Assembly: GCA_963693365.1 (NCBI GenBank)
Contig: CAVNZM010000023.1
Coordinates: 9,077 to 73,076 of the forward strand
DNA: 64,000 nucleotides
Reading direction: 5' to 3'
DNA from: Amoebidium appalachense
Lineage: Eukaryota > Protista > Ichthyosporea
Every line of letters starts with the position of its first letter. The first letter of the stretch is position 1. Shown here piece by piece: positions 16,943 to 60,863 of this stretch. The notes below the pieces were generated by a model, which saw only the letters and a list, made by a program, of their open reading frames with translations, ran no database searches and was not told where the DNA came from. The position numbers were made by a program, and so were the translations under genes.

Positions 16943-16993
<51 letters not shown>

Positions 16994-26328: not shown

Positions 26329-26632
26329 GACTAACCCATTATTTTACTTGCTATTATCGAGCATGCACGGAACGGGGAACAACACACAGATACAGATACA
26401 GTTTATATATAATGTTTGATGGATACAAACTTTGGCAGTGCTGGCAAACAGAAGCAAAGACTATGAACCGTCGACACATGTCGGTGTGCAATTACATATC
26501 TTAGTGCCAACACCGAAACCAAATGACAGAACACGGTGTGTAAATTGAATACTAATAAGCGAGCACGAAAGCAAAAATAGCCAGCTGTGTAGCTTCAAAT
26601 CGTTAGTACACCGGGCAATAGTAGCCCACACA

Positions 26633-31879: not shown

Positions 31880-32536
31880 TTATATAAAGTCGGGAATGTG
31901 ACAAATCGCCGTGTCTTGGTCCTCTGTCTCCCATCCCTGCAGCTCGTGGTCTGCGCGTATGTCTAACACTTTGGCCTGAAAACTCATTAATGTCTTGCCG
32001 TGCTTGGCCCACCACTCCTTGTCCCGCGGGATCTCGTCGATGCGCAGCGACCCGTCGCGCGGGTCGAACTGCACAAAGTCCGCGACCTCCAGCCCCAGCA
32101 CAAACAGCTGTGTCTGCACCTGCGCCACATAGTGCTCGGGGATCGGCTGTCCGTCCATGAACTTGCGCTTGTACGGCACCTTGATCTCCACCGCGCGCCC
32201 GCACAGCGTCACCCGGTCCGGGCTCGCCCCCAGCCACCGGTGCTCCGCGTGCCGGATCAGCCCCAGCTCGATGCACGAGCGCCCCGTCGCGCGCATGTAC
32301 GCGTCCGCCGCGTTGGCCTCGTGCTTGTGTCCGAATGCCACGAACACGGGGTCCACGACCCGCCGCTTCAGCCCGGACTTGTGCTCGATCAACTCGCGGC
32401 GGGACTCATAGGGATTCACACCCAGCGCGGCGCCCACGTCCGAGGCCGTGAGCATGCATGCGCGCGCGCGCAGCCACGCCGCGCTGCCCTGCGGGTACGG
32501 CACTTCGTGCTGTTGGATGCGAGTGATGAAGTCCAT
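31880..32536 (-). CDS. YqaJ-like viral recombinase / lambda-type exonuclease
   Basis: QGSAAWLRAR..LTASDVGAALG, FGHKHE, WLGASPDRV, VEIKVP and HYVAQVQTQL motifs; TATAAAA 36 nt upstream of ATG 32536. Confidence 0.92.
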   Translation of the reverse strand: MDFITRIQQHEVPYPQGSAAWLRARACMLTASDVGAALGVNPYESRRELIEHKSGLKRRVVDPVFVAFGHKHEANAADAYMRATGRSCIELGLIRHAEHRWLGASPDRVTLCGRAVEIKVPYKRKFMDGQPIPEHYVAQVQTQLFVLGLEVADFVQFDPRDGSLRIDEIPRDKEWWAKHGKTLMSFQAKVLDIRADHELQGWETEDQDTAICHIPDFI

Positions 32537-32733
32537 TCTGCGGACATCTCTCGTGCGAGTCGGGTTTTTATATGCGCAATTTGGATGCAAACCAACTGGC
32601 AATCACTCATCTTGAGTGATTGCTTGAGTGATTCGTGATCTTCAAAGATGATGCGAAGTAGACGGTTTTATAGGTGCGGTTCGTGAACACAGAAGTCCTT
32701 GACTGGTTCACGGACATCCAGATACATCCAGAA

Positions 32734-34125
32734 TCAGACAAAGCGGATGTCGTCGTCCCCGTACACCTCCTTGAACGCGTTTGACACGCGCACGTAGTCC
32801 GCCGCGAACATCTCGCGCTTGTTGCCCACCATCACGCGCACCTGCTTGAGCTGGTTCTGCACCAGCTTTTCGAACTGCTCCGCCTCGTTCTTGTTGCGGT
32901 GGGGCATACATATGATGATGAGCTCCTTCATGTCGTGGGACCACAGGTCATACTTGTAGCGCTGGAAAAGCGAGTTGCCCGTGTGCCCGATCTTAATGTA
33001 GCCGTCGATGTGCAGCGCATACACACACGCCCCACCGGCCGCCTTGAGCGACCAGTCGAAGTTCAGCTGCCGCCAGGCCACGAAGTGCACGTCCAGACCC
33101 TTGAGCTCGGCCTTCATCTCGCGCACTGCCTTCACCATGGCAAGCGTCGAGTCGATGCCCCGCTGGATCGTGTCCTGCTTGGCCCGCTCCTGTCGCTCTA
33201 CCTCCTCCGCGCGCTTGACCGCCGCGAGTGCCTCGGGGCAGTAGTTGGTGCAGATGTCGCGGTGCGCGGTGGTGATGAACTTGTTGAGTTGCTCGAGCGC
33301 GGTGTCGAAATCCACTCCCGGCTTGAACCAAATGCCCGGTTCCAGCATCGCGTCCAGCGGGTTGCGCTTGGCCACCTGCTGCTCCCCGTCGTCTTCGCGC
33401 TCACGCTTGCCCGCGCGCGGGCCCTCCGCGTCCGCGGCCTCCATGTCAATGTGCACGGACTTGGTCTTGGCCCCGTCGCCGCGTCCTTGGTCGGCGATGC
33501 GCACCAGGTCCGCGAAGTAGTCCATCTGGCCCAGGTGCGACTTGACCATCACGTTGTCCCAGAAGTCCCGCAGCGCGGGAAAGCAGTAGCGCAGAAACGG
33601 CGCGGTCAGCTCGAACGCGAACCAGGTCCCGCGGTACATCTCGATGGCGGGTATCAGACCGTGCGTTGCGAAGGCGTAGGCGACAGAGCCATCGGTGTGG
33701 GATATTGCGGGTAGCTTCTTGATCCGCGAAAACGCGCTTTGAACAAGCACCCGGGACGAACTTGGAGCCACGTCCAAGTTCCCTCCTTCCAGATCCATCG
33801 TCTCCACATTCATCCGAGTCAACTCCAACACCCGATCAACCGTGTCCTGATTATGCCTAACCCAATTAACAGGATTCTTCCATGTTCCGCCCGCCTCCTT
33901 GCTCCCTAGCGACGCGGAGTACCCCGCGTTGAAGAACACGTGCCCGTCGAACTTCGTCAGGTACGTCAGCACCTTCTCCCCGTCCGGCGCGAAGAACGGG
34001 CGCACGCCGGGCCACGCGGGCACCGACGACGTGTCCACGCGCGACTCGTGGCCCGCGGGCGGGCGCCAGTCGGGGCCAAGAGGGGTGGGAGAGTAAGAGG
34101 GTGGGGGAGACGTGTTTGAAGTCAT
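32734..34125 (-). CDS. KilA-N-like DNA-binding protein with C-terminal T5orf172/GIY-YIG-like domain, 463 aa
   Basis: N-terminal DGHVFFNA...NWVR...RGTWF (KilA-N pattern); C-terminal CVYALHIDGYIKIGHTG...EKLVQNQLK...REMF. Confidence 0.75.
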   Translation of the reverse strand: MTSNTSPPPSYSPTPLGPDWRPPAGHESRVDTSSVPAWPGVRPFFAPDGEKVLTYLTKFDGHVFFNAGYSASLGSKEAGGTWKNPVNWVRHNQDTVDRVLELTRMNVETMDLEGGNLDVAPSSSRVLVQSAFSRIKKLPAISHTDGSVAYAFATHGLIPAIEMYRGTWFAFELTAPFLRYCFPALRDFWDNVMVKSHLGQMDYFADLVRIADQGRGDGAKTKSVHIDMEAADAEGPRAGKREREDDGEQQVAKRNPLDAMLEPGIWFKPGVDFDTALEQLNKFITTAHRDICTNYCPEALAAVKRAEEVERQERAKQDTIQRGIDSTLAMVKAVREMKAELKGLDVHFVAWRQLNFDWSLKAAGGACVYALHIDGYIKIGHTGNSLFQRYKYDLWSHDMKELIIICMPHRNKNEAEQFEKLVQNQLKQVRVMVGNKREMFAADYVRVSNAFKEVYGDDDIRFV

Positions 34126-34414
34126 TTCAGAGTAAGACTGCGATTTTATTTTGCGCGCGGCGCCTTTTGTACCCGGCCAGCGGGAGGGTGCAACACATCC
34201 ACTTCACTCGAACTGATGGTCTGGTTAACCATTTCAAAGGCCTCAATTTGAGGCATTTGGCTGCCAAGTTACCCAGTGCCTAGCAAAATCACAACCGGTC
34301 ACATTGACCGATTGCAGGCTGCGGGTTACGGCACACACACACACACAACCAAAATGGCTATCGATCGATCACATTGATCGATTGCCAATTGCTTACCAAA
34401 ATACACACCCGGGT

Positions 34415-35890
34415 TCAAACGCCGTCGATGGGCACAAAATCCAATTCCGGCAGCACCTGCTCCTGGTAGTAACGACCAAGGGCGTAATCCTTGCCCTCGC
34501 GGGTGTCGTGGACGTACCATTTCGGAACCTCGGGTCCCCACAAGCTGGTTGGGTTCAGCTCCGCATCCCTGTGCTGTTGGAGTGCGTGTGCGAACCCGGG
34601 GGGCATCGCTTCGCCGCGCCGCCAATCAATATTGATCTTGAATGCAAATAGCTCTATGTAGCCCGGGGTGTATTCCATGTCATCGTCAAACTTTGTAAAC
34701 GCGGGGAGAACAGTATTTGCCGCCGACAGGAAATCCCGCACTGCCAGTGGCTTGGGCTGTCTTTCGATCAGCCCTTTGAGCTCTCCGGCAAAGCTGTCTG
34801 TCCCCGAGGGTGACTGAAAAATCTCCCGAATGCGCCGAGACATTGGCGCCATCGCAGCCTGCTTGATTAGATTGAGGATGTCCGATGTGGAATACGACTT
34901 GAGAAACATCCAGTACGCCAACTTCTGCAGGGCCTCTCGCGGGGTGTGAACCCCGTCATTGACTACTAGCAGCGTTGGGTCGACGCTCAGGGGATACTCC
35001 GCTTGGAACTCTTCCAATTTTTCCAATATCAGTTCGAGGATGTCGATCGGTAGCGGCAGGTCAACAAACACGCGAACGGGAAATCGCCTCAGAATCGCCC
35101 GGTCCAGGTCGAACGGCAGGTTTGTCGCGGCCACGTACAGCATATGGTCATTGTTCTTGCGCAGCCCGTCGTACTCCGAAAGAAACTGGTTTGTGATCTT
35201 GTACGAGTTGCCCGACCCGCTCGCACTGTTGCGGTTTCGGGAGCCCAGTATCGACTCGGCCTCGTCCAGAAACATGACAGTGGGACGCAGGCACCTTGCG
35301 AGCGAAAACACCGCCTGCACCGCCTTCTCCGAGTTGCCCTCCCACTTTGAGTTGAGCACAGCGGACGACACGTTCATAAACGTCGACCTGCCCACCTGCG
35401 CCAACTTGCTGGCAATAAACGTCTTGCCGGTCCCGGGTGGACCAAACATCAGAATTCCCCGCCCAGGCGTTCGCAGGCTGCGGAACAGTTCGGGGACAAA
35501 CCGTGGAACAATAACGGTTTCCAAAAGCTTCTGCTTCGCCTCCTTCAGCCCATTAATGTTCATAAACTCTGCCAGGTCCTCGTCGCGTGGCTCGAGGCCT
35601 TCACCGTCGGGCGGGAAGACGATCTGTCTGATTGGGGTCGTGATCTCGCGGTTTTCTACGTCGTTGTGGATACTGGCAAAGATATCGCAGTTGGTCATGT
35701 AGTCCTTGTACAGCGCGTCCCTTTGCTCCGGTGTCAACTTGCTTGAAGCCCCCACCGCGTCCGCACGGTCCCTTGCACGGTCGGCGGTCAGCTGCCAAAT
35801 CCCGGAGAACCATGAGGTGAGCGGGTCATCGTCCTCCGGTTCCTCCGTTCTGGGGCGTTTCGGGGGTCTGCCGCGCGGGCGTGAACTCAT
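34415..35890 (-). CDS. AAA+ ATPase of the Vps4/katanin/spastin (meiotic) clade with N-terminal AT-hook-like motif
   Basis: GILMFGPPGTGKT (Walker A), SKWEGNSEK (pore loop), MFLDEAE (Walker B), ATNLPFDLDRAILRRF (SRH). Probable start ATG 35890 (MSSRPRGRPPKRPR). Confidence 0.9.
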   Translation of the reverse strand: MSSRPRGRPPKRPRTEEPEDDDPLTSWFSGIWQLTADRARDRADAVGASSKLTPEQRDALYKDYMTNCDIFASIHNDVENREITTPIRQIVFPPDGEGLEPRDEDLAEFMNINGLKEAKQKLLETVIVPRFVPELFRSLRTPGRGILMFGPPGTGKTFIASKLAQVGRSTFMNVSSAVLNSKWEGNSEKAVQAVFSLARCLRPTVMFLDEAESILGSRNRNSASGSGNSYKITNQFLSEYDGLRKNNDHMLYVAATNLPFDLDRAILRRFPVRVFVDLPLPIDILELILEKLEEFQAEYPLSVDPTLLVVNDGVHTPREALQKLAYWMFLKSYSTSDILNLIKQAAMAPMSRRIREIFQSPSGTDSFAGELKGLIERQPKPLAVRDFLSAANTVLPAFTKFDDDMEYTPGYIELFAFKINIDWRRGEAMPPGFAHALQQHRDAELNPTSLWGPEVPKWYVHDTREGKDYALGRYYQEQVLPELDFVPIDGV

Positions 35891-36558
35891 TGCTCCTCGA
35901 CTACAAAATCGGAAGCGGCGGAGGCGCACACACAACCAAAATGGCCATCGGTCATATTGGTGGGTGGCTGCCCAAAACCCGGCGTGAAAATTCCCGCGCC
36001 GGGGCGGGGCGTGGGGGCATGCGTGGCACGCGTGGCACGCGTGGCTCGCCGGGCGGGCGGGCCTCCCAGGCCTCGCGGGCCTCGCGGGCCTCTCGGGGGT
36101 GGGCGGGGGCATTTGATTGGTGTATCGTGTTTTTGTGTCGTCTCTGAGTTGTCTCTGCTTCGTCTCTTAGCCATAAAATGCCGCATTTTCATTGGTTCCC
36201 AAGAATTCATAGACATTGTTTATTGTTTGTCTCTGTGTCTCTGGGTAAACAGCAATGTTGGTGATCAGGCTTGGGTGTCTTTATTTTCATATATAAAATT
36301 AACACGTGTAAGCGGCTAAGTGGTGTAAGTGCTGTTACACACATCACCCCCCAACCACCAAAAACACACCCCAACAGCCAATCAAAACACTTGAAATGCC
36401 TCTTATACTCGCCCCCCGCCGACTCAGAAGTTCTACTTATTCTACTTACACATATAAAATTCTAGTTACAAAAGTTACAAACATAGAAATGGTGCGATTT
36501 GATTGGCTGTTGGGGCGGGGTTACATCCACTTACACGTTACAGAACAGCCATTACACA

Positions 36559-38055
36559 TTACACACGGACGCCAATAAGCCGGCGGTCGATGGTATAGCA
36601 ACCAGCGACCCCAGATACTGCAGTGCAAGCCTCGGCCCCGAACTTTATGGCTGTAACTCGGGTGCTCTTCACCTTGCCGAGGATGGCCGTCATCGCGATG
36701 CCGAAGTCCCGCTGCACAGGCCTCTTGGACTTCTCGGGTGTGTTTTGGTCGAACCATATCTGGTATAGGCCGAATAGTGCACTGGGGGTGACTCTGTCGC
36801 CGTCTTCCAATAAAGGGGCACCATCACACCCGTTCTCGCGATGCAAGAGATCGTGCAGAAACTGCAGCTCCAATGGTCCACTGAGGTCCTGCAGCTCACG
36901 CTTGAGCGTTGTCATGGGGGGTGGTACCCTATTCGGGTCGGAAATGGGGGTACGCATGAGCCAGTGGTAAACATGCGCCAGGGCTGGGGCTCCGGGTTGG
37001 TACTTCTCGATAAGGGCGCGGAAGTACCTGTCGTCGCCAACTCGCTTGTCAGACACCTCCATGCAGGCGTACCGGCGGTCAGTACGGCTCACGGGAATTG
37101 GATGCTGCTCGTTGGACATCAAGATCCACCGTTCACATGACTTGACCTTGACCGCGTCGATGCCCTTAGACTCGTACGTCATCGTGTCGTCAGTAATGAG
37201 AGTCTTCAGATGGTTGGGGGTCCGGTGGCTCTTTCCGTAGGTGACCTCGTTGCACACAACTAACATCTTGAACGTTATGCCTATGTTGAACCGGGTGGCC
37301 AGGCGATCCTCCGTCTCCACCACACCGACCAGATCGTCGCCCAATACGTTTTGGATGATCTTCACGAACACGTTCTTGCCTGTGCCCTCGATGCTGCGCA
37401 TGAGCCAGGCCGATTCCGGTTTGCGCGCTGGAAACTGAAACATGTGCCCCAACCATTCGATGACATAGCGATATAGGCCGCCGTCTCCCGCACATATAAC
37501 CTCCTTTGCGTGATTCTTGAAGGGAGCGATGAGGGCCTCGTCGACCACAAAGGCGGGGTCGTAGATGAACTTGAATCCCGGAAAACTGTTGAATGCGCGA
37601 TTGTAGACGTCGGTGTAGGTAGGGTTACGCTCACCCGTTTTAGGGTCTGGGTCGCTCGGGTCAAAGACAATGCCTTTGTAGTACACCAGGATTCCATTCA
37701 CATCGTTGACGTATGTGGACCCCTTGTAGTAGTCAAGCTCCCCCTTTTCGTTGAAGTATTTGAATTCGTATTTGGACATCATGTCAATCGCCTTCTCCTT
37801 TGACCTGATCTGATGGACGAACCGACCGTCTTCAAAATGCTTCACGATATACACCTGGTCTTTGTTTGAGTAAGCGAGCAATGTCCGACAGAAAGTGTAC
37901 ACCTGGTCCATGTTCCAGATGTAATTGCCTATGTAGCTTGGAGGAATCCAGTTGTTGCAGGTGCCGGTGAGTCGTTCAAATTCCTCAAACGCAACACGGA
38001 GCCGTTCCCGATGAACATGGCACCCCAGCTCCAAATCCGAACGGATGGCCTCCAT
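36559..38055 (-). CDS. D5-like SF3 helicase (DUF5906/NrS-1 type), no evident primase domain, 498 aa
   Basis: WLGHMFQFP, SIEGTGKNVF (Walker A), LVVCNEV (Walker B), LKTLITD, ILMSNE (motif C), DRRYACMEVS. Confidence 0.88.
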   Translation of the reverse strand: MEAIRSDLELGCHVHRERLRVAFEEFERLTGTCNNWIPPSYIGNYIWNMDQVYTFCRTLLAYSNKDQVYIVKHFEDGRFVHQIRSKEKAIDMMSKYEFKYFNEKGELDYYKGSTYVNDVNGILVYYKGIVFDPSDPDPKTGERNPTYTDVYNRAFNSFPGFKFIYDPAFVVDEALIAPFKNHAKEVICAGDGGLYRYVIEWLGHMFQFPARKPESAWLMRSIEGTGKNVFVKIIQNVLGDDLVGVVETEDRLATRFNIGITFKMLVVCNEVTYGKSHRTPNHLKTLITDDTMTYESKGIDAVKVKSCERWILMSNEQHPIPVSRTDRRYACMEVSDKRVGDDRYFRALIEKYQPGAPALAHVYHWLMRTPISDPNRVPPPMTTLKRELQDLSGPLELQFLHDLLHRENGCDGAPLLEDGDRVTPSALFGLYQIWFDQNTPEKSKRPVQRDFGIAMTAILGKVKSTRVTAIKFGAEACTAVSGVAGCYTIDRRLIGVRV

Positions 38056-38138
38056 GATGTAAGAAGGCTGAGATTATATTTTGTTGGATCCCTTGGGCTT
38101 ACATATATACCTGTGGCCCGGCAAGGATTTCGGGATGC

Positions 38139-38657
38139 TCAGTCTGGATGTAGAGGTCTTCCATACTGTCCGTTACTCTTGGGATAGATAATATCTGACG
38201 GGCCCTGGGTCATGTTTGCCAGTTTTTGTGCGGCTGGAGGGACCACCAGCTCGGGGTGCGCGTTCAGCACATGGTGGTTGAGCGCGGGAGACCGCATAAA
38301 CGTACACTCGCACCCCACAGATGGACACCGAAGGGTACCACGCACCCGCCGCGTGCGTGTTTCATTCCCGGTATGGACCGCGCGGCGGTGCAGCCATAAC
38401 GCAGCGTGGGACGGGTAGTCAGCACCACACGAGTCACAGATGTACGGCCGCTCGCCCGTATGCATCCTGACGTGCACCTTCATGTGGTCGCTGCGCGCAA
38501 AGGTGGCAAAGCAGCCATTGTGGGGGCAGGTGTACGGGCGGGTAACCGAGTGCGTGGCGGCGTGATGTCTCTTCATGTTGGCTTTGATGGTAAAGGTCTG
38601 ACCGCAGTCGGGGCACGCAAAGACTTTCTTGGGTGTGGTGTTGCATGGAAGATCCAT
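38139..38657 (-). CDS. C2H2 zinc-finger protein (4 fingers), 172 aa
   Basis: CPDC..HHAATH, CPHNGC..HVRMH, CDSC..HRRAVH and CPSVGC..HVLNAH, with a canonical TGERPY linker. Confidence 0.92.
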   Translation of the reverse strand: MDLPCNTTPKKVFACPDCGQTFTIKANMKRHHAATHSVTRPYTCPHNGCFATFARSDHMKVHVRMHTGERPYICDSCGADYPSHAALWLHRRAVHTGNETRTRRVRGTLRCPSVGCECTFMRSPALNHHVLNAHPELVVPPAAQKLANMTQGPSDIIYPKSNGQYGRPLHPD

Positions 38658-40760: not shown

Positions 40761-43700
40761 ATGAGCCACCCCGGAAACGTTGTTCTTAGGGATGTCGAAC
40801 GGGACTGGGAGCGCCTGGTGGGGCGCAGGATCGACCGGACCCTGCACCAATTCTGCGGCCTCACGCAGGAGGATATACCCGCTTTGGCGCGCCTGTGTAT
40901 TGCGCTTCTGGACCACGACTACACCATCCGGAGGAGCGGCGTCGAACCCGTTTACGCGGTCAAGTCGGTGGTTTCGCAAATCCGCAACACCCCGCTGCCC
41001 AACGCGAAACCTTACGACCCCCTGTTCACGATCCTGTCCGGCAAGTGCCAGGTGGGCAAAACGTACGAGATCTGCCTCCTGTGCTGGGTCTCGTACTTCA
41101 TTGACGGGTGCATCCCCGCCGTTCTCATCAAGACCCGTGGGGGCGTGGCTGCCGGGCCCACGTTCCAGGCGAGTTTCTCAAAGTCCTTCAACACGGTCAT
41201 CGCCCGGCTGCTTGTCGAGCATCGCGAAGACTGGGGCCTGCCCACCGAATGGTTCCGCGTTAACGCGGAGGGGGTTGTGGAAGCGATCGAGGCATATACC
41301 GGGCGGTTCTACATCGGCTCCACGCCCCCCTCCCCGAAGTACCGACCAAACGAGGTGCGGGGGGTACTGAACGAGGCACGCATACTGCTGTCAAACGACA
41401 CACAGGTGCCCAACTTTGTGAGGTATTTGGGGGCGGCGACCAATCGGATCGGCTTCAAGCGTGATTCTCTTGGGGGTTGGCGGTTTCGGGCTACTTTGAT
41501 CCTGGACGAAATCCACGAGACGGCCACCGGACGCCACGGCGACACGTTTTAACGCCTGGGAGAATCTCTTTTATTATTTTAACCCGACGCTTGCCCGCGT
41601 GTGGGACAGTGCTCGAGAGTTTTGGGACCTCCCCCAGCAAGACTTCAAGAGCTTCGCGGGGGCCGCGTTCAAGTGCGTGGGCGTGACGGCCACGCCTGTT
41701 GCCATGCTCAGCTGCCCGTTCCCCCTGCGAATCGTTGACATGCCCGTGCCGGACACCTACATAGGCTACGCGGCGCCGGGGCATGTGTACCGGCCACACT
41801 ACGAGATCGAGCGTCGGTTCACGCCTGAGCGACTCAGCAACGCGCCAGTCGCCAAGTCCCTTTTCTACGACGTCGTCGTCTCTGGCCTGAATGATAACCT
41901 GACGGTCAACGAGGTGTTGGAGCAGGGGGGGTACCCACGTGGGCGAATCACGGCTAAGGCAAAGGCGACCATTCCGTACCTGGCGGCCGTTGTGGGGCGC
42001 CTGGACGCGATGCTCAAGGAGCGCGTCACCGCCGAGCGCGTTGACGAGGAAGGCATCAACATGGCCATTGCCGATATGCTCGAGTCCGACACATGGTGCG
42101 AGCAACTGCTGGTCATGACCGACAAGACCAAGGTCCTTACCACGCAGGAGCCCATCTTCAGGCACATCGCCGGCTTCGTCGACGACGGCCTCGTGGTTGT
42201 GTTGTGGCGCTACAACAAGCTGCAAATCAGGGCACACGTGGACCTGTACAAGTGGCTGGTGGAGGCCGCGAACGCCGTGCTGGAGAGTGTCAGCGTCGAC
42301 GACGATGCAAGGGCGTATGTGGAGCGTAAGATCATCGGTGGCGACGATGACGATTCGGACAGCGAAACCGGAGAGGCCTACACGTTCACTATCAAACACA
42401 AGCCCCTCCTGATCATCGGGATGCCGCTCGATGCCCTCTGGCGTTGGTCCGACGAAATGGGCCGCCCGTTCAAGGTGGCCATCATAGCGGGTGACATGGC
42501 CCGATGCGGGGTCACGTTCAAGCCCACCCACAAGTGCGGGCGCAACATGCACCGCGGCCTGCTGACGCGCATGTATGCTGGCTTCACTTGCTTGGCAGGG
42601 ATGCGGTCGGGATCGGGATCCACCTCGAGGACGATCCACCTCGAAGCGGCCTCGCAGATATGTGGACGGCTGTGCTCCATTGCCCCCGACCCATCCGCGG
42701 TCACCCAAGCCCCCATACTCTATGCGCCCGAGACGGTGCATGCGCTCCACGAGCTCGCGCTGTTGGTGATGGCACGTGTGGGCGAAGCCACCAGGCTGTA
42801 CGATAGGGCTGTTGGCTTCGAAATACTCGTTCGCCAAGCGCTTGCGGACGATCCCGTGTACTTCGAATGTCTGGGGGCGGTGTGTCGGCAGCTCGAGGCG
42901 GTCGACGGCAATGACAGGATGCACCGGGGGGATATCTGCGTGTCGCGACCAGAACTCCAGAAGAGAACATTCAAGAGAGCCTATGGTGCCCTGCGCGTTG
43001 AGTACGGTGAGGACCTTCCTGGCTACGACATGGTCAAGAGGATCCGCCCAGACAGACCGCTTGTCACGAAGGACGACGTGCGGTCCATGGACCTCAGCGA
43101 CGCACGCGCCCTCCCCCCGCCTCCGCCGCCCACAAAGACGCTGGCTAAACTGCTCGCCACGGTGGTCGTGCGCCTGGTCATCGAGCCAAGCGAAGCGTGG
43201 CACTACCGCGCCGAGAACTATTTCGCGCGGCCGACGGGCAAGAACGGCGCGCCCACGGCCAGCGTGGTGACGATCAAGGAAAAGCTGCCCGCACTTCGCC
43301 ACCTGGTCGTGGGGTTTGAGTTCGTGTCCCTGGATGAGGCCGCGGATGCCACAGGGACGCTCGCACAGTATGTGGACGCGGGTGCGAACGACGAGGCCGC
43401 GCGTCCATGGACCGCCACACCGGACGACCTTGCTCGGCGCCTGCGCGTGTGCAACGACGGCGAATACAAGATGGAGGTCGCGGCCACACTCGAGGCCCAG
43501 GAGGCGCTCTTGGCCACACTCGGTGTGCCGCTTGTGGACGGCGTGTTCACGGTGCCGACGGTGCTGCGCGACGCCATCGTCGACTGCTACCGCAAGACCG
43601 TGGGGTCCGCGGGGCAGCAGGCCCGTAGGCGCAAGGGCGGGCGTGCCGCGGAGGACGGGGTCGGGTCGCGGCCAAGAAGGGCAACGCGCGCGCGCCGGGG

Positions 43701-44223
43701 TGCTGCAGCGGAGGACCACGAAGTTCCAGCCCCGGCCGCGGCCGAGGTCGGGCCGCAACCGGGGCGGGCCAAGCGTGCACGCCGCGGGGCTGCAGGCGCC
43801 GCCGCGGGCGCGGCGCCCAGTCCCGAGATCGCTCGCATTTTCCAATGTCTTCTCAGGGACGACTTTGTCGCCATGTCGTTGCTGCTGGAAGAGGGCGTGG
43901 ACATGTCGACGTTCCAGTGGCGCAAACAGGCGGCGCGCGGCAAGAAGTGGATGCAGGCGTACCAGCCATGGATCGAATACGTGCCGAAATCCGGGGAGAA
44001 CGACTTGACGCTGCACATGCTGGCCGCGGCGTTCATCCACGGCAGGGGCGACGTGCGCGGCGTGGCGCGCGAGGGTGTAATGACAAAGCAGTGGCAATGC
44101 CATTTGACCAAGTTCGTCACGGGTAGCAAGGGAAATACATGGCGGTCTTACGTTTCCGGTGGTCCGGTGCTCGTTAAGGAAGGGAAAGTCTGGCGACTCA
44201 ACCCATTGAGCCCACTTGCATGA
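40761..44223 (+). CDS. SF2 ATPase/helicase of the Z1-domain type (~1150 aa); +1 frameshift in T4 at 41547-41550
   Basis: Walker A SGKCQVGKT and Walker B LILDEIHE lie in the first ORF. VGVTATP, PDTYIG, IIAGDMARCGVTF and QICGRLC lie in the second. Removing one T gives DTFNAWENLFYYFNPTLARVWD, an open join. Confidence 0.75.
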
Positions 44224-44225
44224 TG

Positions 44226-45128
44226 TCACGATGTTGGTTCGAGTGGGGGGGGCAAGTTGGTTAATATTAACGATGCAAACCTCGGTGGTACGGCGTTTGC
44301 TATTAGAATATGCATTGCAATGATGTTTAGCGGGAGCTCTGTTATGTAGCCAGTTGGGAACGTCTGGACGCTCTCTTTTTCTGTAATAGTCATGTTGCGT
44401 ATATATCGAAACTCGGCATCCCATAAATAAAACCCTTTTGATGTCATCGTGAACAGAAGACCGTCAATTGGACGTGGGGCCCCCACACCATGGCGGTATT
44501 TCAAGCCCCCCTCTAACCACGCCTCCAAACGCCCCTGCGACAATGAACTGTTTGTTATCCATGCCGTGTCTCTGGACGTTATTACATCTTTGGGAGATGG
44601 GGTTTGAACGAAGGGCAATGTCGACGGATCCCACCCATCGTATGCAATGAGTCGTCTGCGGGTCTGGCACACTCCGTGGTCGGCCATGTTGACGATGACA
44701 TATGGCACTCCTTCTCGACCTAGAAGACTTCTTAGACGTGGGTGGTTGACCTCCTCCACGGAGAAACTGTCATATGGCAAGGAATCAAAGAGATCGAGCA
44801 TGTACAAAATCAGCTCCAATGTGTTGTCCTGGTCCCCCGCGTGATTGCGCGCGCTCGACAGCTCCTGGCACGGCGGGCTCGCATGCACGTGCAGGTGGTC
44901 GCCTGCCTCCATGGCCGGTACGGCCTCCATCAGCTCGCGCGCAAAGTCCTCTGCGGGCACGTCGCCTATGGTGCGCAGCATGTGCACGGCCCCGGGGTGG
45001 CGGGTGCGGTGCACCTCCAGCGCCACGTCCCAGCTGTCGACCGCCACCGCCACCACCGCACCCGCCTGTCGCGCACCCTCACTGAACCCTCCCGCGCCAC
45101 AGAACAGGTCGATCACGTACACCACCAT
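44226..45128 (-). CDS. C5 cytosine DNA methyltransferase (Dcm/HhaI-like), copy 1, intact
   Basis: Motif I IDLFCGAGG, IV SPPCQ, VI VEEV (ENV variant), VIII QTRRRL, IX QTFP, X IANAVPP. Confidence 0.93.
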   Translation of the reverse strand: MVVYVIDLFCGAGGFSEGARQAGAVVAVAVDSWDVALEVHRTRHPGAVHMLRTIGDVPAEDFARELMEAVPAMEAGDHLHVHASPPCQELSSARNHAGDQDNTLELILYMLDLFDSLPYDSFSVEEVNHPRLRSLLGREGVPYVIVNMADHGVCQTRRRLIAYDGWDPSTLPFVQTPSPKDVITSRDTAWITNSSLSQGRLEAWLEGGLKYRHGVGAPRPIDGLLFTMTSKGFYLWDAEFRYIRNMTITEKESVQTFPTGYITELPLNIIAMHILIANAVPPRFASLILTNLPPPLEPTS

Positions 45129-45259
45129 GCTTGTGGATGCCTCGGATTTTTTGTGGATGGATCGGGGCTTCTCAAAACAAAAAACAGCCAAATACAGACT
45201 TAATTACATCCAAGCCTGCTCACAACGCGTCCGTGCCCGGGTACGGGAACCCGACACCC

Positions 45260-46281
45260 TCACGCGTGGTCATGTCGCGGTACGTGTCGGGGTTGACCCG
45301 GGGCATCTGCATGGCCCCGGGCTTGAGACACCGGCGCCGCCGAAATTGTATTCAGAATTGCGCAGGCCATCGCCGGCGGGACTGCGTTGGCGATTAACGT
45401 TTCTCTGCTCTCTTTCGAAGGCACGCTTAGAGCCGTGATGTAGCCACATGGGAATGTCTGGAGCTTTTCCAATTCAGATGTTTGGATCCGTCTTATATAT
45501 TCGAAACGTTCGTTCCATAGGTAGAACGGACTTCGCACGACCGTGTAGAAATATGCATTGCTAGGTAGCGATTTCCATGTCGGAAACACCTGGGTTTTCT
45601 TGGGGATAGTAACTTCCATGTCGATGGTCCTTGTATTTTCCATTGGTCCCACTCCCTTGTCTCCCTCCATGTTTGCATTCGTATTGGGTAAATGCTCGCG
45701 GGGGTAATCCACGTAGCGTGCGGGGTTGGGTCTAGTTGGCTTAGTAGCGTCGGGGGCGAGGATCTGGGCATAGCGTAAGGGTTCCAACCGTCATATGCAA
45801 ATAAACGCCTACGTGTCTGGCATACCCCATACTCCCACATGTTCAGCACAATGTACGGCACGCCTTCCTCCGCGAACAGCTCTCTCAACCCGCGGTTGTT
45901 GACCTCCTCGATTGAGAAGCTGTCGTACGGCACGCAATCGAGGAGGTCCAATGTGTATCTTACCAACTGCAACGTGTCACCCACACGCCCCAGCCCCAGG
46001 CGCATCTCCGACAGCTCCTGGCACGGCGGGCTCGCGTGCACGTGTAGGTGGTCGCCGGCCTCCATGGCCGGCACGGCCGCCATCAGCTCGCGTGCAAAGT
46101 CCTCTGCGGGCACGTCGCCTATGGTGCGCAGCATGTGCACGGCCCCGGGGTGGCGGGCGCGGTGCACCTCCAGCGCCACGTCCCAGCTGTCGACCGCCAC
46201 CGCCACCACCGCACCCGCCTGTCGCGCGCCCTCGCTGAACCCTCCCGCGCCACAGAACAGGTCGATGACGTACACCACCAT
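45260..46281 (-). CDS. C5 cytosine DNA methyltransferase, copy 2, frameshifted at ~45590-45650 (pseudogene or assembly error)
   Basis: Motifs I-VIII are in the 46323 frame; FYLW..QTFP..IANAVPP are in the 45787 frame. N-terminal part is nearly identical to copy 1. Confidence 0.85.
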
Positions 46282-46368
46282 GCTTGTGGATGCCACTGAT
46301 TTTTTGTGAATGGAACAGGGCATCTCAAAACAATAAACACCCGAATCGAACTTTATAATACAGCCTGC

Positions 46369-47484
46369 TCACGCCGCGTCCGTGCGCGGATACGGGAACG
46401 CCACGCCCTCGCGCATGGTCATGTTGTCGCGGTACGTGTCGGGGTTGACCCCGGGCATCTGCATCGGTCCGGGCGCCTGCTGCTGGCCCATGCCCATGCC
46501 CATGTCGTCGGCCCGCATGCGCTTGAGGCTGTCGCCGAAGTCGTCCAGCTCGGATTCCCGCTTGCGCGCGAGCATGGCCGCGAAGTCCGCCGTGGGCCGC
46601 GCGTTCATGGCCGCGCCGGATGCCGCCAGCAGCGCGTTGTTCTGCGCCTGCAGGCTGCTGTTGAACGCCTGCACGGACACCTGCTGCTGGAAGTTGCGCA
46701 TGCGCGTGTACTCGTCGCGCTCGGCGGCCTCGAACATGGCCATGCGCTGCGACACGTCCTCCTGGGCCTTGAACCACGGAAGCAGGAAGTTCTTCTCGAG
46801 CGCGGCCTCCTGCGCCTTGAGCTGCTCGTTCTCGGCCTGCAGGCGGAAGTACTCGAGCTCCAGCTCCATCAGGCACTGCTGTAGCAGCTTGATCTCGCGG
46901 TCGCGCTTGGTGATCTCGATGGAGTCGGCCGGCTTGCTCTGGCGCACGAGGTCGGAGAACTGCGCGGCCACCTTGTCGAACCCCGGGTCCACGCGCACGC
47001 TCAGCGCGGCCATGGTGGTCGGCGGAACGGGGTGCTCGGCCTTGACGCGGCGGCGCTGCAAGGCTTTTGTGTGCACGGGAGCCGCCAAACGCTCGATGGC
47101 TGCCGCGAGCGCGGCATCGAAAGCCTCGGGGGTCGTGTCTGGTTCCAGCCTCAGCCAGTTCTCTGCGTACTCCTCCATGCTTGCGGTTGGGTTGGGTAGG
47201 TGGCGGGGGTGGAACGCATTCGCAAACATCGGCAGCGCGAGCACGCGCCAGTCGATGCCCGGGACCATCACCGTGCCGTCGCCCGACGACGTTACATTGA
47301 TCAGAGGCGCTCCGCTCGGCTGTGTGAGCCATGCGTGCAGCACGGCGAGCAGCACACCGAGGGACGTGACCATTGTGGCGTGCGCGGGACCAAACGATTC
47401 TGGATCAGGCGAAATGGCTAGCTTGATTTTTTTGGGTCTTCCCGCCAGGATCTGGTTGAGCACATCGGGGTCCATGGATTCCAT
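46369..47484 (-). CDS. Hypothetical viral coiled-coil protein (~371 aa)
   Basis: GC3-biased ORF. Probable start MESMDPD lies just after the stop of the upstream gene. Confidence 0.75.
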   Translation of the reverse strand: MESMDPDVLNQILAGRPKKIKLAISPDPESFGPAHATMVTSLGVLLAVLHAWLTQPSGAPLINVTSSGDGTVMVPGIDWRVLALPMFANAFHPRHLPNPTASMEEYAENWLRLEPDTTPEAFDAALAAAIERLAAPVHTKALQRRRVKAEHPVPPTTMAALSVRVDPGFDKVAAQFSDLVRQSKPADSIEITKRDREIKLLQQCLMELELEYFRLQAENEQLKAQEAALEKNFLLPWFKAQEDVSQRMAMFEAAERDEYTRMRNFQQQVSVQAFNSSLQAQNNALLAASGAAMNARPTADFAAMLARKRESELDDFGDSLKRMRADDMGMGMGQQQAPGPMQMPGVNPDTYRDNMTMREGVAFPYPRTDAA

Positions 47485-49508: not shown

Positions 49509-50696
49509 TTACAACTTGGGACCGACATAATCGCCAAAGGCGCGGAGGGTCATCGGCATCATGTACTCGAGCTCCTCCCATTCGGGGGACAAGGGGCCAT
49601 CGGCACGAACCACGTAGATAACGTTGTTGCGGTTAGTTCTGATGCCGGTGGCTTGGTACAACCATTCGAGGTAATCGATTTCCTCGGTGCTGCTGATCTG
49701 ACAACGAAAGTGCACGTGCCCGTAGTGTCGAAACCGAGGCTCGAACGTGCCCAACGCATGAACGAACTCTGCTCCCCAATGTTTACCGTTTTGAAAAACC
49801 CCGAGGAGGAAACGACCCCTGGCAGGCATGCGGTCATCAACCTGGTGGGGTTGCCACGCCGCAATCTTCCGGTGTTCGGGCATGTCTGATGCGAGGCTAG
49901 CCAGGGCATACGGTGCACACGACGCGAAGTATGGAATCGGCCCCCCCTTGTCGCGGAAAATTTCACCATTGTAGTGTGCACGGACGCCGTTCTCGTCGGC
50001 AGGGGGTAGCGGTAAGTTGATCCCCCACACCATTAAATCTTGCAAGCCAAAGAATTCATCCTCGCACAGAACGTTCCCAATGGCAAGAAGTTTGCCGTCT
50101 TCGCCGTGTGTACTCTTGGGCTTGGGTGCGGGCTGGGCTTTCTGGGGGGCACGGGGCTTTGGGGACTGGCACGGCGAGGCTGCTTGTTCGTCGTCGCGGT
50201 TCCCGATGAGAAGACTTGCCTGTTTGACAATTTCATCCAAATAGGCACCACATGAAGTCTCCGATCCTTCTTCCAAGTTCTCGCGGGTGCAGACGCATCC
50301 GAAACGCGCAAAACTCGTGCTTTTGGTTACGTTTTCGCGGTACTCGTCGCTCCGACCGACCCCGGTCAGTCGTGTCAGAATGATGGTGGAACGTTTGAAT
50401 ATCTGCTTTTCCTCCTCACTCGCCCAAGTGGTGATTTTGTCGGCGTGGAAACGGGCGATCAACTTCTTGATACCGCTCAACGACGCGGACTGGAGACACC
50501 CAACCCACTTGGTCAGAAGGTGCGGCGAGCAGCCAGCCGCCTCCGCCGCAATGGACAAATTGGTAAAATCCGTGTTGTCGATGAACTCGGACACGGACTT
50601 GTCGGCGTCGCCCTCCACCGATGCGAGGTAGCGCAGACCGCGGTGAATGCAATCTGGGTCAAACCTCTTGTAGTCTACAACGAGTTTGTTCGCCAT
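49509..50696 (-). CDS. Unknown viral protein, paralog of 51521-52927 (HAD variant of J-like motif)
   Basis: Shares RAHYNGE, PY.LA.LA.D, PA.GRFL.G and NN.IY.VRAD.PLS.EWEELE..PMTLR.F..YVGPK with the paralog. Probable start MANKLVVDY. Confidence 0.85.
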   Translation of the reverse strand: MANKLVVDYKRFDPDCIHRGLRYLASVEGDADKSVSEFIDNTDFTNLSIAAEAAGCSPHLLTKWVGCLQSASLSGIKKLIARFHADKITTWASEEEKQIFKRSTIILTRLTGVGRSDEYRENVTKSTSFARFGCVCTRENLEEGSETSCGAYLDEIVKQASLLIGNRDDEQAASPCQSPKPRAPQKAQPAPKPKSTHGEDGKLLAIGNVLCEDEFFGLQDLMVWGINLPLPPADENGVRAHYNGEIFRDKGGPIPYFASCAPYALASLASDMPEHRKIAAWQPHQVDDRMPARGRFLLGVFQNGKHWGAEFVHALGTFEPRFRHYGHVHFRCQISSTEEIDYLEWLYQATGIRTNRNNVIYVVRADGPLSPEWEELEYMMPMTLRAFGDYVGPKL

Positions 50697-50804
50697 GTTT
50701 TTTCCACGTCTGGTTGATTGTCTGTGTGGTTGTGATCCATTTATTCCGCGTCTGTTGTTTATATATCTCAAATGGGATCTAAATGGCAAAAAATCAAGAC
50801 AAAA

Positions 50805-51484
50805 AATCGATATCGCAATATGATTGGTCCGCCATGATGTAAAGATATTTTCGCGCCAAATGATTGGTTCGCGGGCGGTTCACGTGTCACTTCGTGTCAC
50901 TTGGCTATTTCGATTGGTCCGCCCTGAATTAAAAACCGGTTTCGGCCGGGCGGACCAATAAAAAGTTCGCCCAGATGCCAGCCATTGGATGGAGTCAGAG
51001 GAATTATTTTTGATTAGTTCACATGGTTAAATTTGAAGCTCTGATTTGTCGCCATGGGTCGCGTGTTCTTCATCTATTGGTTTATTGTTGAAGCATAAAT
51101 TTCATTGCAAGTCTGAAGCGCCCAACGCGGTGCACATCGATATATATATATATTCCGCGGCTCACGGATCGAAACACCATCAAATAATCGAAATCGCAAT
51201 ATGATTGGTCCGCCATGATGTGAAGATATTTGCGCGCGAAATGATTGGTTTGCTGACGGTTAACGGGCCAATCATAAGTTCGCCAAGGTGCCAGCCATTG
51301 GAAGGAGTCGGAGGAATTATTTTTGGTTTGTTCATACGGTTTTCAACAAAGGTCTGATTGGTTGCGGTGGGTCGCGTGTTCTTCATCTATTGGCTTATTG
51401 TGTTGAAAGCTTAATTTTCATTGGATATCTGAAGCGCCCAACGCGGTGTACATCGATATATATACGCGGCACGCGGGTCGAAAC
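50805..51484. promoter_or_regulatory. Duplicated CCAAT-rich divergent promoter region (direct repeat 50805-51175 / 51186-51484)
   Basis: Two diverged copies run from atcgcaatatgattggtccgccatgatgt to tgaagcgcccaacgcggtg(c/t)acatcgatatatata, with many ATTGG/CCAAT boxes. Promoter role is inferred. Confidence 0.7.
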
Positions 51485-51520
51485 CCTCAGTGCACACAAG
51501 TAAAAGACACATCATTCAGT

Positions 51521-52927
51521 ATGGCGCACCTCGACAGCTTCCTTCCTGATTTTACCCAGTTAGACGCGGAGTGTGCCCATCGGGGTTTCGGTTTGCTTGC
51601 CTCCCAATCCCCAACGTTCGAAGATGACGTGCGTCTGTTCCTGAAAAGCATGAAGCCGTCCGCCAGAATCCAAGACATAGCCGCTGAAGCCGGCAGGTCA
51701 ACACTCCTGTTCACCACCAAGTTTGCACAACTCCAGGCCTTAGACTCGGGCGGGATCAGGAGAGTTGCAAAGACTTTTCACCCGGACAAGCAGTCACCGA
51801 ACTTGTCCGCGGAGCTAAGCAAGGCGATGACGGACACCTACATCGTCCTCGGTCGCTTGTCGTGTGGAAAGAATGCCGAGACCTACATCGCTTCGGTGGA
51901 ATTTCACGAGAGTTACCTCCACTACGGTTGCGTATTCAGCCGCGCTAACCGCGAGAACGACGAGAAAGAAACGCGTTGTGGCCAATACCTCAAAGATTGG
52001 GTGGAAGGTCTTCAACGCGCAGGAAAGATTAACAACCACGGTTTGACACAGGACGCAGAGTGCATCACGATCACGGACACGGACACGGACACGGGAACGG
52101 AGACACCGGACTCGGACTCTGATGACACGGGCATACAGGACCACTCGGACACGAACAAAAACGTTCTTGCCATAGAGCCACCCATCACACACGACGACCA
52201 ATTCAACCTCCTGTCCGTCACGGAGGCAGTCAAGAAGAAGTCCGGTGGCAAGGAGGCTCGGAAGCACGCGGGTGTGTTGGTGTGGGGGGTCGACCGGGAG
52301 CTTCCCAAGGCAAACGAATGGGGAGAACGTGCACACTACAACGGCGAGTTTGTTCGCAAAAAAGACGACCCCATTCCCAAAATCGGCAAAGTGGGCGATC
52401 CCTATGTGCTGGCAACCCTTGCTGCAGACATCGAACACAAGCATGCTACCTGGCCATCCCACCTTGCCGACTCTCGTCTTCCCGCACTAGGACGCTTCCT
52501 TGCAGGGTTTCTCGACAAGCGTCGCACAGCCCCAAAAGTGTGGCCCCCACCTGTGCATTTTGCGCACGTGCAGATCCGTCTCAACTTCGCATTCAGAGAC
52601 TACGATCAACTCGAACCCTTAGTATACAATAGCAAGGACAAGACTACGATGGGCCACACCCGTTGGCTTAATACGTACGGCATTGAGCGCAACCAAAACA
52701 ACATCATTTACATTGTCCGGGCCGACAACCCCCTTTCAGTCGAGTGGGAGGAACTGGAGGGGAAGCTCCCTATGACACTGCGAGATTTCGCAAGATATGT
52801 CGGTCCGAAGGCAAAGCGCCTGGCCGCTCCCAGCGCCGAGGGCATGCAGGCCAGCAAGAGCACAAGGCGCAAACGGGAGGCCACCCCCCCCACCAAGCCA
52901 GCCAAGAAGGCCAGGAAGACCATGTAG
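51521..52927 (+). CDS. Unknown viral protein with J-domain-like HPD motif, paralog of 49509-50696
   Basis: GIRRVAKTFHPDK...AMTDTYIVL, acidic DT/DS linker, shared C-terminal domain and basic tail PAKKARK. Confidence 0.85.
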   Translation: MAHLDSFLPDFTQLDAECAHRGFGLLASQSPTFEDDVRLFLKSMKPSARIQDIAAEAGRSTLLFTTKFAQLQALDSGGIRRVAKTFHPDKQSPNLSAELSKAMTDTYIVLGRLSCGKNAETYIASVEFHESYLHYGCVFSRANRENDEKETRCGQYLKDWVEGLQRAGKINNHGLTQDAECITITDTDTDTGTETPDSDSDDTGIQDHSDTNKNVLAIEPPITHDDQFNLLSVTEAVKKKSGGKEARKHAGVLVWGVDRELPKANEWGERAHYNGEFVRKKDDPIPKIGKVGDPYVLATLAADIEHKHATWPSHLADSRLPALGRFLAGFLDKRRTAPKVWPPPVHFAHVQIRLNFAFRDYDQLEPLVYNSKDKTTMGHTRWLNTYGIERNQNNIIYIVRADNPLSVEWEELEGKLPMTLRDFARYVGPKAKRLAAPSAEGMQASKSTRRKREATPPTKPAKKARKTM

Positions 52928-53349
52928 GCATGTCAGACCTGCAACAAGACCATGTAGGCATGTAGGCAATAACGCTGGCGTTGCGTGGATGTGTGTGTGT
53001 GGTCATGGTATTGGTGATATTGCGTAAGGCTGCTACAGCGATGGCTATTTTTGCTTTCGTGTTCAACCATCAGTATTCAATTTACACACCATGTTCTGTC
53101 TTTTGGTTTCGGTGTTGGCAATAGAGATATGTAATTGCACACCGACATGTGTCAACGGTTCGTAGTCTTTGCTTCTGTTTGTCAGCACTGCCAAGGTTTG
53201 TATCCATCAAAAATATATCTGAATATCAAATGGAATACGTGGTCACGAATGTCCACCACAGCGCTGTGCGTTGTGTGTTGTGTTGTATGTATTGTCATGT
53301 GTATATGAAAATAAAGTATTTTCAGGTCCTTGTATTTTTTCGGTTTCGT

Positions 53350-54038
53350 CTTTTGAGTCTTTAAGGCTTTCGGCAAAACGCAACTCTTGCAAAGTCTTTC
53401 GGTTCCGCACCGCGGCCAACACGACTCTTGCAATTTTTCATTTTTCAGAGTCTTTGGGCTCCGCACCGCGGCCAACGCGACTCTTGCAATTTTTCTGAGT
53501 CTTTCGGCTCCGCACCGCGGCCAACACGACTCTTGCAATTTTTCATTCTTCAGAGTCTTTGGGCTCCGCACCGCGGCCAACGCGACTCTTGCAATTTTTC
53601 TGAGTCTTTCGGCTCCGCACCGCGGCCAACACGACTCTTGCAATTTTTCATTTTTCAGAGTCTTTGGGCTCCGCACCGCGGCCATTTTTTTCTGGTCTTT
53701 CGGCTCCGCACCGCGGCCAACACGACTCTTGCAATTTTTCATTTTTCAGAGTCTTTGGGCTCCGCACCGCGGCCAACACGACTCTTGCAATTTTTCATTT
53801 TTCAGAGTCTTTGGGCTCCGCACCGCGGCCAACGCGACTCTTGCAATTTTTCTGAGTCGCCCGCGGCACACGACTCTTGCATTTTTCATTTTTCAGAGTT
53901 TTGGGCTCCGCACCGCGGCCAACGCGACTCTTGCAATTTTTCATTTTTCAGAGTCTTTGGGCTCCGCACCGCGGCCAACGCGACGCTTGCAATTTTTCTA
54001 GTCTTTCGGCTCCGCACCGCGGCCAACGCGACGCTTGC
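53350..54038. repeat. Tandem array B: ~13 units of mostly 56/49 bp (GGCTCCGCACCGCGGCCAAC(A/G)CGACTCTTGCAATTTTT...)
   Basis: Unit starts at 53401, 53457, 53506, 53562, 53611, 53667, 53702, 53758, 53814, ~53859, 53904, 53960 and 54008. Confidence 0.97.
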
Positions 54039-58352: not shown

Positions 58353-58494
58353 GAAGCTGCCCCTGTGATCGAAGGGCCGGGTGGAATCCATCCTCAAATT
58401 CCTTGAGGCTGGCCTCCATTGATCTTGAGGCCGGCTTCCAGGCCATGGGTATAAAGGCTGGGCCTACCGCAAAATAAAACCTGTACCTAGATTG

Positions 58495-58920
58495 ATGGCC
58501 ACTCTCGCAATGCAGCCACCAGCGTACAACACGATTGCATCCCCCGCTCCGCAGTCCTCCCGGGCCCGCGTGGTGATGCGCAACGGGCAGGTGCTGGAGG
58601 AGGGGGAGGTGACGCCGATAAACGACGACGAGGGTAAAGTCCTCACCTATGGGGAAGTGCGTAACGGAGGAGAGCTTTGGGTGAATGTCACCTACATTGC
58701 TAAATCCAGCGGGAAGACGTGGAGCGATTGGTTTCGGCTAGATGGCACACACGCACTCTTAAATGAAATCGAGAAGAAAAGGAGTCCTGCAGCGAGTCCT
58801 GGGATTGTCCAGGACTCCTCTGATTGGTCGGTTGTCGATTCGGCTCGCATAAACTACAAGGGGAAAGACTGCGAGCGACTCCGCGGTACCTGGGTCTCAT
58901 TGGATTACACCGCCCAATAA
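58495..58920 (+). CDS. Short/truncated KilA-N domain protein
   Basis: WVNVTYIAKSSGKTWSDWFRL...RGTWV pattern; stops right after RGTWV. Confidence 0.7.
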   Translation: MATLAMQPPAYNTIASPAPQSSRARVVMRNGQVLEEGEVTPINDDEGKVLTYGEVRNGGELWVNVTYIAKSSGKTWSDWFRLDGTHALLNEIEKKRSPAASPGIVQDSSDWSVVDSARINYKGKDCERLRGTWVSLDYTAQ

Positions 58921-58978
58921 AGCCGTTTACTGTGGTTGTGTAGCGTTTACTGTTCGCGCACTCCGTGCGTGTCCGTGT

Positions 58979-59975: not shown

Positions 59976-60057
59976 ACGGGGTGTATAGAAAAAAGCCCGA
60001 CCGCGGCAAGCCAAGGTATAAAAAGCCCCGTCAATCCACATTTCACGCCAGAACACA

Positions 60058-60843: not shown

Positions 60844-60863
60844 GAATTATCCATGCCTGTGGC

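Follow-up and report, generated by a model that had tools for sequence, protein, structure and literature searches.

What does a predicted ATP-dependent motor do beside a DNA methylase in a giant virus that has become part of a eukaryotic genome? The question is raised by a 64,000-nucleotide stretch of the Amoebidium appalachense genome (hereafter the window), in which the gene for an SF2-type ATPase, here called the motor, converges on two tandem genes for C5 cytosine methyltransferases (methylases 1 and 2). The first-pass annotation of this locus described it as a restriction-modification (RM)-like module built around a Z1-type ATPase. The results presented here indicate that the linkage of motor and methylase is real and wider than had been proposed, as the partners of related motors also include TET-like dioxygenases and adenine/N4 enzymes.

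The motor gene

The features of the locus are as follows.

40761..41552, + strand: 5' piece of the SF2-type ATPase gene, 263 amino acids (aa), with Walker A GKCQVGKT and Walker B DEIH, ending at a frame break
41548..44223, + strand: 3' piece of the same ATPase gene, with motif III, the Y motif and the second RecA-like domain (motifs V and VI)
44068..44332: branch point, where contigs of runs X1 and X17 bridge the ATPase end and methylase 1
44226-45128, - strand: C5 cytosine methyltransferase 1, 300 aa, intact (PF00145, 61.3 bits; PADLOC MTase_II, E 3e-25)
45260-46281, - strand: C5 methyltransferase 2, in two frames, 45493-46281 and 45260-45787 (PF00145, 44.5 and 26.8 bits)
44631..46474: tandem duplication with a period of about 1152 bp, the copies 44631-45322 and 45784-46474 being 81% identical

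The six motifs that had been reported for a single SF2-type open reading frame (ORF) of about 1150 aa were all found on the + strand in the order given: GKCQVGKT (nt 41040), LILDEIHE (41496), GVTATP (41680), PDTYIG (41749), IIAGDMARCGVT (42481) and QICGRLC (42655). The gene is split over two frames, 40761-41552 and an open frame at 41500-44223, and when read through with X at the break it encodes 1153 aa. The two pieces are one gene, since the 1172-aa protein P0001 aligns to both (41% and 38%; 37% identity and E 6e-88 to the 3' piece) and contigs of runs X1, X10 and X2, three of the four runs inspected, span the break in a single frame; run X8 had no coverage there. A programmed +1 frameshift was rejected in view of the same spanning contigs. 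As rare variants are lost from contigs, the break is either confined to this copy or due to faulty assembly. The motor stop at 44221-44223 lies two nt from the stop of methylase 1 at 44226, the tail-to-tail arrangement noted previously. The window holds one occurrence of a Walker-A-like pattern, for which chance predicts 0.02; this is a weak test, given that the pattern was derived from the motif itself.

Beyond the RecA-like domains the motor continues for approximately 500 aa of unassigned fold, possibly with a winged-helix-like tail, that bears a weak likeness to the tail of the giant-virus family described below (score 18, shuffled maximum 17). The C-terminal 400 aa or so had been put forward as the candidate effector; a nuclease-like effector found no backing, as comparison with the giant-virus family revealed no conserved nuclease motif in this part. 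Two fold models had a mean predicted local distance difference test score (pLDDT) of 35-36, and the fold searches made from them were disregarded.

A giant-virus family of SF2 motors

A full HMMER scan of 1.84 billion representatives returned three matches to the motor. P0001 was the sole real homologue, and the other two, P0002 and P0003, were repeat artefacts. The record of P0001 belongs to a 183-kb contig in an assembly of Daphnia sinensis, and the protein may stem from an epibiont or virus in that assembly. Word-index searches found no homologue for the 3' piece (among proteins of near lengths), the 5' piece (among longer ones) or P0001 residues 215-460 (among shorter ones). Queries with the window motor and P0001 found no relative in the viral, metagenome or genome collections of the related-locus search, tblastn of phages and plasmids gave chance matches only, sequence searches of the PDB with family profiles returned only weak DEAD-box rows, and Pfam, PADLOC and PHROGs held no match for the motor. 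In the ESM Atlas, all 30 of the nearest clusters to P0001 residues 130-800 scored 0.95-0.96 and, among the rows listed, were mostly from Nucleocytoviricota.

Two motif scans of viral contigs, comprising 240 loci, yielded 25 SF2-like proteins, 12 of which form a group that includes six giant-virus metagenome-assembled genome (GVMAG) contigs. The family grew to 143 proteins in 96 clusters at 90% identity when the search was widened to more viral and metagenome contigs and also run with the methylases as the starting point. A profile of the window motor and P0001 matched 80 family members by hhalign at 97.8% (E 9e-13, score 108 over 551 columns; maximum of 20 in 15 shuffles). For this comparison the alignment of the pair was used in place of a mis-stacked three-row alignment, A1 (90.7%, 30.2%). 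The match runs along the whole core, including the family block IAGDLAGRGISF...HLT..Y...Q..(G)RLCG...PL.LY; an 'HLT' match in the window belongs to the C-terminal tail, is not the family motif and was not counted. The window motor as a single sequence matched the family weakly (hmmsearch, 13-15 bits). These profile comparisons place the motor, though divergent, in a giant-virus SF2 family, and that family in turn is related to Z1. As a representative of the family, the window's copy is both degenerate and divergent. The viral context claimed for the module was borne out.

Linkage of the motors to DNA-base modifiers

Long members of the family were defined as those of at least 520 aa with at least 1.2 kb of downstream flank, in 90% clusters, and a modifier was counted when it lay within 450 bp downstream. 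On this definition a DNA-base modifier is encoded directly downstream of 22 of the 38 long members (7 C5 methylases, 10 TET-like, 3 N6/N4 and 2 D12 enzymes) and within the locus of 25; a modifier lies directly downstream of 2 of the 12 short members. As a control, a modifier was present anywhere in 3 of 118 other viral loci, which were unmatched and mostly phage contigs. A first pass had found a C5 methylase tail-to-tail at 40-81 bp downstream in 4 of 26 distinct members, and any C5 methylase in 1 of the 118 controls; in the full set this arrangement was found in 7/38 long and 0/12 short members. A reverse search from the best 80 of 334 methylase matches, in which 7 of 65 clusters were dropped for short flank, revealed a motor tail-to-tail within 300 bp in 18 of 58 C5 clusters and in the locus in 25. 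Both search directions together gave a tail-to-tail C5 methylase in 23 of the 96 family clusters, as in the window, where the stops nearly overlap as they often do in relatives. The family members in these counts are kin. The first-pass annotation would have been refuted had homologues never been linked to methyltransferases in other viral genomes, and the survey of gene neighbourhoods in giant-virus contigs found such linkage, to C5 methylases.

Among the 40 motors that lack a C5 gene, 10 have a TET/JBP-like dioxygenase downstream, 3 a D12 methylase, 3 an N6/N4-type methylase (one by homology only) and 1 an HNH-type gene. Partners were identified with Pfam, 93 of 116 neighbours being scanned, and the TET-like ones by their profile. 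The two best PDB matches of the TET-like profile were Naegleria Tet (E 0.005 and 0.008). The tail-to-tail pairs are scattered over many deep branches of the motor tree, and motor and methylase similarities co-vary (Spearman 0.68 over 20 pairs), to which kinship among members could contribute. No third gene was common to the 120 neighbours of the 23 linked loci, the largest clusters having 4 and 3 members. Prokaryotic Z1 loci are organized differently: a C5 gene is present in 42 of 75, a tail-to-tail methylase within 300 bp in none of the 75, and a same-strand gene lies directly downstream in 58.

Several observations accompany these counts. Compact viral TET/JBP-like dioxygenases of about 185 aa, without a Pfam match, lie downstream in 11 of 50 motor clusters (example L362:9856-10407, alignment A9). 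C5 methylases with GTDCSGIEAP as motif I (L373:9633-10535, alignment A8) form a large giant-virus subfamily, the N-terminus of which had Cryptococcus DNMT5 (7r76, E 0.024) as its best PDB match. A family of 190-250 aa without assignment lies directly downstream of five mostly short motors (L376:9360-9932, L378, L380, L381 and L382). Three motors that overlap a C5 methylase tail-to-tail have an altered Walker A: L392:6884-9325 (QSQKT), L458:6875-9202 (QSRKT) and L450:6922-8967 (QAGKA).

Neither a nuclease nor a MORC protein recurs beside the motors. No cognate nuclease was found among the window ORFs adjoining the module, the YqaJ and T5orf172 genes being more than 6 kb away, and no recurring nuclease was found among the 120 neighbours of linked loci, which gave three isolated nuclease-type matches. 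One of the 40 downstream slots of motors without a C5 partner holds a nuclease-type gene, the HNH-type ICEA-family gene of L542. No MORC/GHKL ATPase was detected in 30 window ORFs or 213 neighbour proteins, in which GHKL domains were confined to Hsp90 and a histidine kinase. Since there is no MORC and no recurring nuclease, the RM-like system proposed in the first-pass annotation is not supported, although an unlinked nuclease may exist.

Relationship to DEAD-Z1 proteins

The definition of Z1 followed PMC5861437 and PMC2292703, and the reference set comprised 77 prokaryotic DEAD-Z1 cores kept from 120 motif matches, 43 that were too short in their locus having been dropped. The motor has the Walker A with Gln (GxxQxGKT; GKCQVGKT in the window, GDTQLGKT in P0001) followed in order by Walker B, motif III and the Y motif as DEIH (not DDEAD), GVTATP and PDTYIG. 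Alignment of the motor with Z1 over motifs II-III-Y gave 53.7% by hhalign (E 1.3e-4) with a score of 43, above the maximum of 22.8 in 30 shuffles, and the profile of the window motor and P0001 gave 45-54% against the 77 cores. For the giant-virus family as a whole the profile-profile comparison with Z1 gave 98.8-99.1%.

The Z1-specific H/H motif is not present in the window motor, which has LLVMTDK at that place, nor in P0001; its start pattern occurs in 75 of the 77 Z1 cores and in 8 of 80 giant-virus family members. The motif V arginine (LSRGxT), a pattern found in 76/77 cores, is Cys in the window and Ala in P0001. The short QxxR form of motif VI is not present either, QICGR in the window and QALGR in P0001 being QxxxR. 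The DThhQXuRhFG signature was found in 64/77 cores, in 0/80 family members and nowhere in the window. No match of the motor to PF10593, the Pfam Z1 family, was obtained at E<=10, and a hidden Markov model of the 77 cores gave negative bits for the window protein. Among 66 family members, 14 had a weak DEAD match and none matched PF10593. The sequence comparisons therefore place the motor as an SF2-type protein that resembles Z1 distantly without being a DEAD-Z1 member: the SF2 part of the earlier assignment stands, Z1 membership does not, four defining features being lacking. True DEAD-Z1 genes also occur on viral contigs (L126, L139, L144, L164 and others), with a C5 methylase in 12 of 13 such loci.

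The tandem methylases

Methylase 1 has the catalytic motifs DLFCGAGG, PPCQ, EEV (a variant of ENV), QTRRR and ANAV. Methylase 2 is 92-100% identical to it over the first 240 nt and 52-68% over the remainder, and at its 3' end it merges with a copied fragment of the adjacent gene. At the break in methylase 2, five runs have contigs whose differences from the window retain a single frame. A second methylase does follow the first, as had been noted, but it is split over two frames and arose by local duplication (about 1152 bp); the tandem is not a conserved feature. Since the motor and methylase 2 are both frame-broken, the window's own copy of the module is probably inactive or mis-assembled. 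The contig depth in run X1 (220 versus 23-31) hints at several copies and is not a copy number.

Genomic setting

The first part of the window is host sequence rich in introns and microsatellites; from about 24 kb onward the sequence is viral and dense in genes, and the observed/expected CpG ratio rises there from 0.3-0.9 to 1.0-1.4. This step is probably the edge of a viral insertion. The flanking genes are as follows.

12300-17130, - strand: ArgJ-family host gene, intron-rich, with a PF01960 match on one exon and microsatellite-rich introns
31880-38657 and 56922-64000: YqaJ, T5orf172, AAA ATPase, two DUF5906 (D5-like) genes and a C2H2 finger, typical giant-virus genes

The picture resembles the endogenised giant viruses (GEVEs) of Amoebidium, in which 10 of 18 DNMTs are located (PMC11244446). 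An inverted repeat of 188 bp (26407-26593 and 53032-53218, 90% identical) encloses a 26.8-kb segment with the motor-methylase module, and tandem repeat arrays lie just outside it (24085-25262 and 53377-54038). The divergent ORFs 49509-50789 (-) and 51446-52927 (+) look paralogous by eye and have no Pfam match. Also by eye, 60058-60843 may encode a PCNA-like protein and 61891 to the end an IS630-like transposase. In a comparison aimed at avoidance of a target site, the 4-mer bias of the window was 0.83 for CCGG and 0.69 for CTAG, and 18 linked loci could not be told from 27 unlinked ones by 4-mer bias.

Discussion

The best reading of these results, to which we give an even chance, is a two-gene module of motor plus modifier in which the motor helps DNA modification. 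The locus would be an endogenised giant-virus copy of such a module, with the SF2-type motor and, directly downstream, the DNA-base modifier, here C5 methylases. Using ATP, the motor would travel on double-stranded DNA and thereby open the viral genome to the modifying enzyme, in the manner of the SNF2 domains that form part of DNMT5 and JBP2, and the purpose may be self-marking against host or rival nucleases or against host silencing. ATPase and translocase activity are predicted from the motifs and from the tested relative H.CglI, gene linkage suggests that motor and partner cooperate, and viral DNA is the presumed substrate. A helper role is favoured because a modifier neighbour of four unrelated kinds has been kept while the flanks were reshuffled and nucleases are all but absent; TET-like dioxygenases and several unrelated modifiers in the partner slot point to a modification helper. 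A bolder and more tentative extension, which we consider possible but rather doubtful, is that a plug-in ATP motor is widespread in giant viruses, derived from a bacterial restriction translocase minus its nuclease. It would power whichever modifier adjoins it, for 5-methylcytosine (5mC), N6-methyladenine or N4-methylcytosine (6mA/4mC) or TET-type oxidation, as a split counterpart of DNMT5 and JBP2 that writes or erases marks on viral, and possibly host, chromatin.

Several results weigh against a helper role. The support for it is gene linkage only, and 13 of the 38 long members have no modifier in the flank and 33 of the 58 C5 clusters no motor. Linked pairs were among the seeds of the searches, the neighbours themselves supplied the sequences for the TET, D12 and N6 profiles, and the controls were not matched giant viruses. 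Other contigs in runs X1, X17 and X20 diverge from the window sequence at 44072-44077 into a different ATPase tail, so not every motor copy has methylase 1 as its neighbour. In a FastTree tree of 15 Z1 rows and 79 members, restricted to those of at least 300 aa with an intact Q-GK[TS], the window motor and P0001 form a long branch inside the viral clade, with weak clade support (0.75). The motif V Arg is kept in 55 of 72 long family members and lacking in this pair; since it is required for the ATPase activity of H.CglI (PMC5861437), the window/P0001 branch may be a weak motor. The window methylase falls outside the GTDCSGIEAP subfamily of the other tail-to-tail pairs, on its own long branch, and the related-locus search found no viral relative of it, so its adjacency to the motor could be independent. 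This methylase of an unusual subfamily represents either one more exchange of partner or a coincidence.

In an RM-like defence the methylase would mark self DNA, and unmarked DNA from rival viruses, from virophages or from the host would be attacked or blocked by the motor, acting by itself or together with a nuclease from another locus. Exclusion without a nuclease is known from DISARM and BREX. The relatedness of the motor family to DEAD-Z1 restriction motors is in keeping with such a defence, as are the HNH-type gene in L542 and a 677-aa C5 methylase (L365:2007-4037) that lies 3.6 kb upstream of a family motor and is extended at its N-terminus by 270 aa which look nuclease-like by eye. The divergence between the two window methylases falls in the variable region, a pattern also shown by specificity alleles, and complete RM systems occur in marseilleviruses and chloroviruses (PMC7253447). 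The isolated nature of the nuclease-type matches, the lack of MORC and of a conserved C-terminal nuclease motif, the different build of prokaryotic Z1 loci and the TET-like partners, which suit modification more than a classical RM pair, nevertheless make this explanation unlikely. The linkage could also reflect old co-inheritance or shared expression timing through convergent 3' ends, with the motor working alone, for example in replication or chromatin clearing, and the pairing in the window incidental. A partner missing in 13/38 long members and 10/12 short forms, motor copies with another tail in the same runs, and a co-variation of pairs that shared descent would produce anyway are all as expected on that account. 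The pair, however, persists while the flanking genes are fully reshuffled, and enzymes of four unrelated classes, all of the same functional kind and found in either orientation, have come to fill the slot, so descent alone does not explain the linkage, and we think this account improbable as well.

The motor might instead read the mark, sensing modified versus unmodified viral DNA and gating replication, packaging or release from host silencing. The same linkage data and the degenerate Walker A of some linked members (L392, L458) are compatible with a reader, and a TET encoded by a GEVE has been implicated in maintaining the unmethylated state of an integrated giant virus (bioRxiv 10.64898/2026.10.09.758095). 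No domain known to act as a reader was found, and one reader would need to suit 5mC, 6mA/4mC and oxidised bases, which leaves this as a very unlikely explanation.

Comparison with known systems

The motor is similar to the DEAD-Z1 motors H.CglI and N.NgoAVII (PF10593) of ATP-dependent CglI-type RM in the Q-containing Walker A, the motif order I-II-III-Y-V-VI and a nearby C5 methylase. It differs in having no PF10593 match, no H/H, no motif V Arg and a QxxxR motif VI; an R subunit is not part of the module, and the module's tail-to-tail layout was not seen in the 75 prokaryotic Z1 loci. With the operons of MORC, SFII helicase, RE-fold nuclease and Dcm (Iyer et al. 2008, PMC2292703) the module shares a distantly related helicase adjoining a cytosine methylase; unlike those described in the available part of that paper, it has no DThhQXuRhFG, no MORC and no RE-fold gene, and is not an operon.

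Virus-encoded DNA methylases, including endogenised copies, are known as the orphan methylases of giant viruses, the type II RM systems of marseilleviruses and chloroviruses (PMC7253447) and the GEVE DNMTs of Amoebidium (PMC11244446). The main texts of these papers, in neither of which the word helicase occurs, describe no motor partner; giant-virus methylases are treated as RM or orphan (PMC7253447, main text), and the GEVE TET is described without a motor in the available part of its report (bioRxiv 10.64898/2026.10.09.758095). A literature survey, mostly short of full texts, found no description of a giant-virus module of motor and modifier, although subscription papers and supplements may mention one. 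Most giant-virus methylases are called orphans. A recurring motor partner gives a directly testable answer to the question of how viral TET or DNMT enzymes that lack targeting domains get to their DNA. The value lies in the motor family, which offers one ATPase and one small enzyme in many natural combinations.

DNMT5 is ATP-dependent. It is a C5 methylase fused to SNF2 and JBP2 a TET/JBP dioxygenase fused to SWI2/SNF2, and the viral module is like both in combining an SF2 ATPase with a DNA-base modifier. The SNF2 domain of DNMT5 is C-terminal (PMC12344493), and the SWI2/SNF2 ATPase motifs of JBP2 are required for de novo base J (PMC2655668). Both enzyme classes are represented among the viral partners, and the N-terminus of the common viral C5 partner resembles that of DNMT5; the window's own methylase differs in its ordinary FxGxGG motif. 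The viral module is two genes and not a fusion, its motor is related to Z1 and not to SNF2, and it is known here from gene linkage. If the preferred reading is true, a restriction-type motor would have become a helper of modification, in parallel with DNMT5 and JBP2 of eukaryotes.

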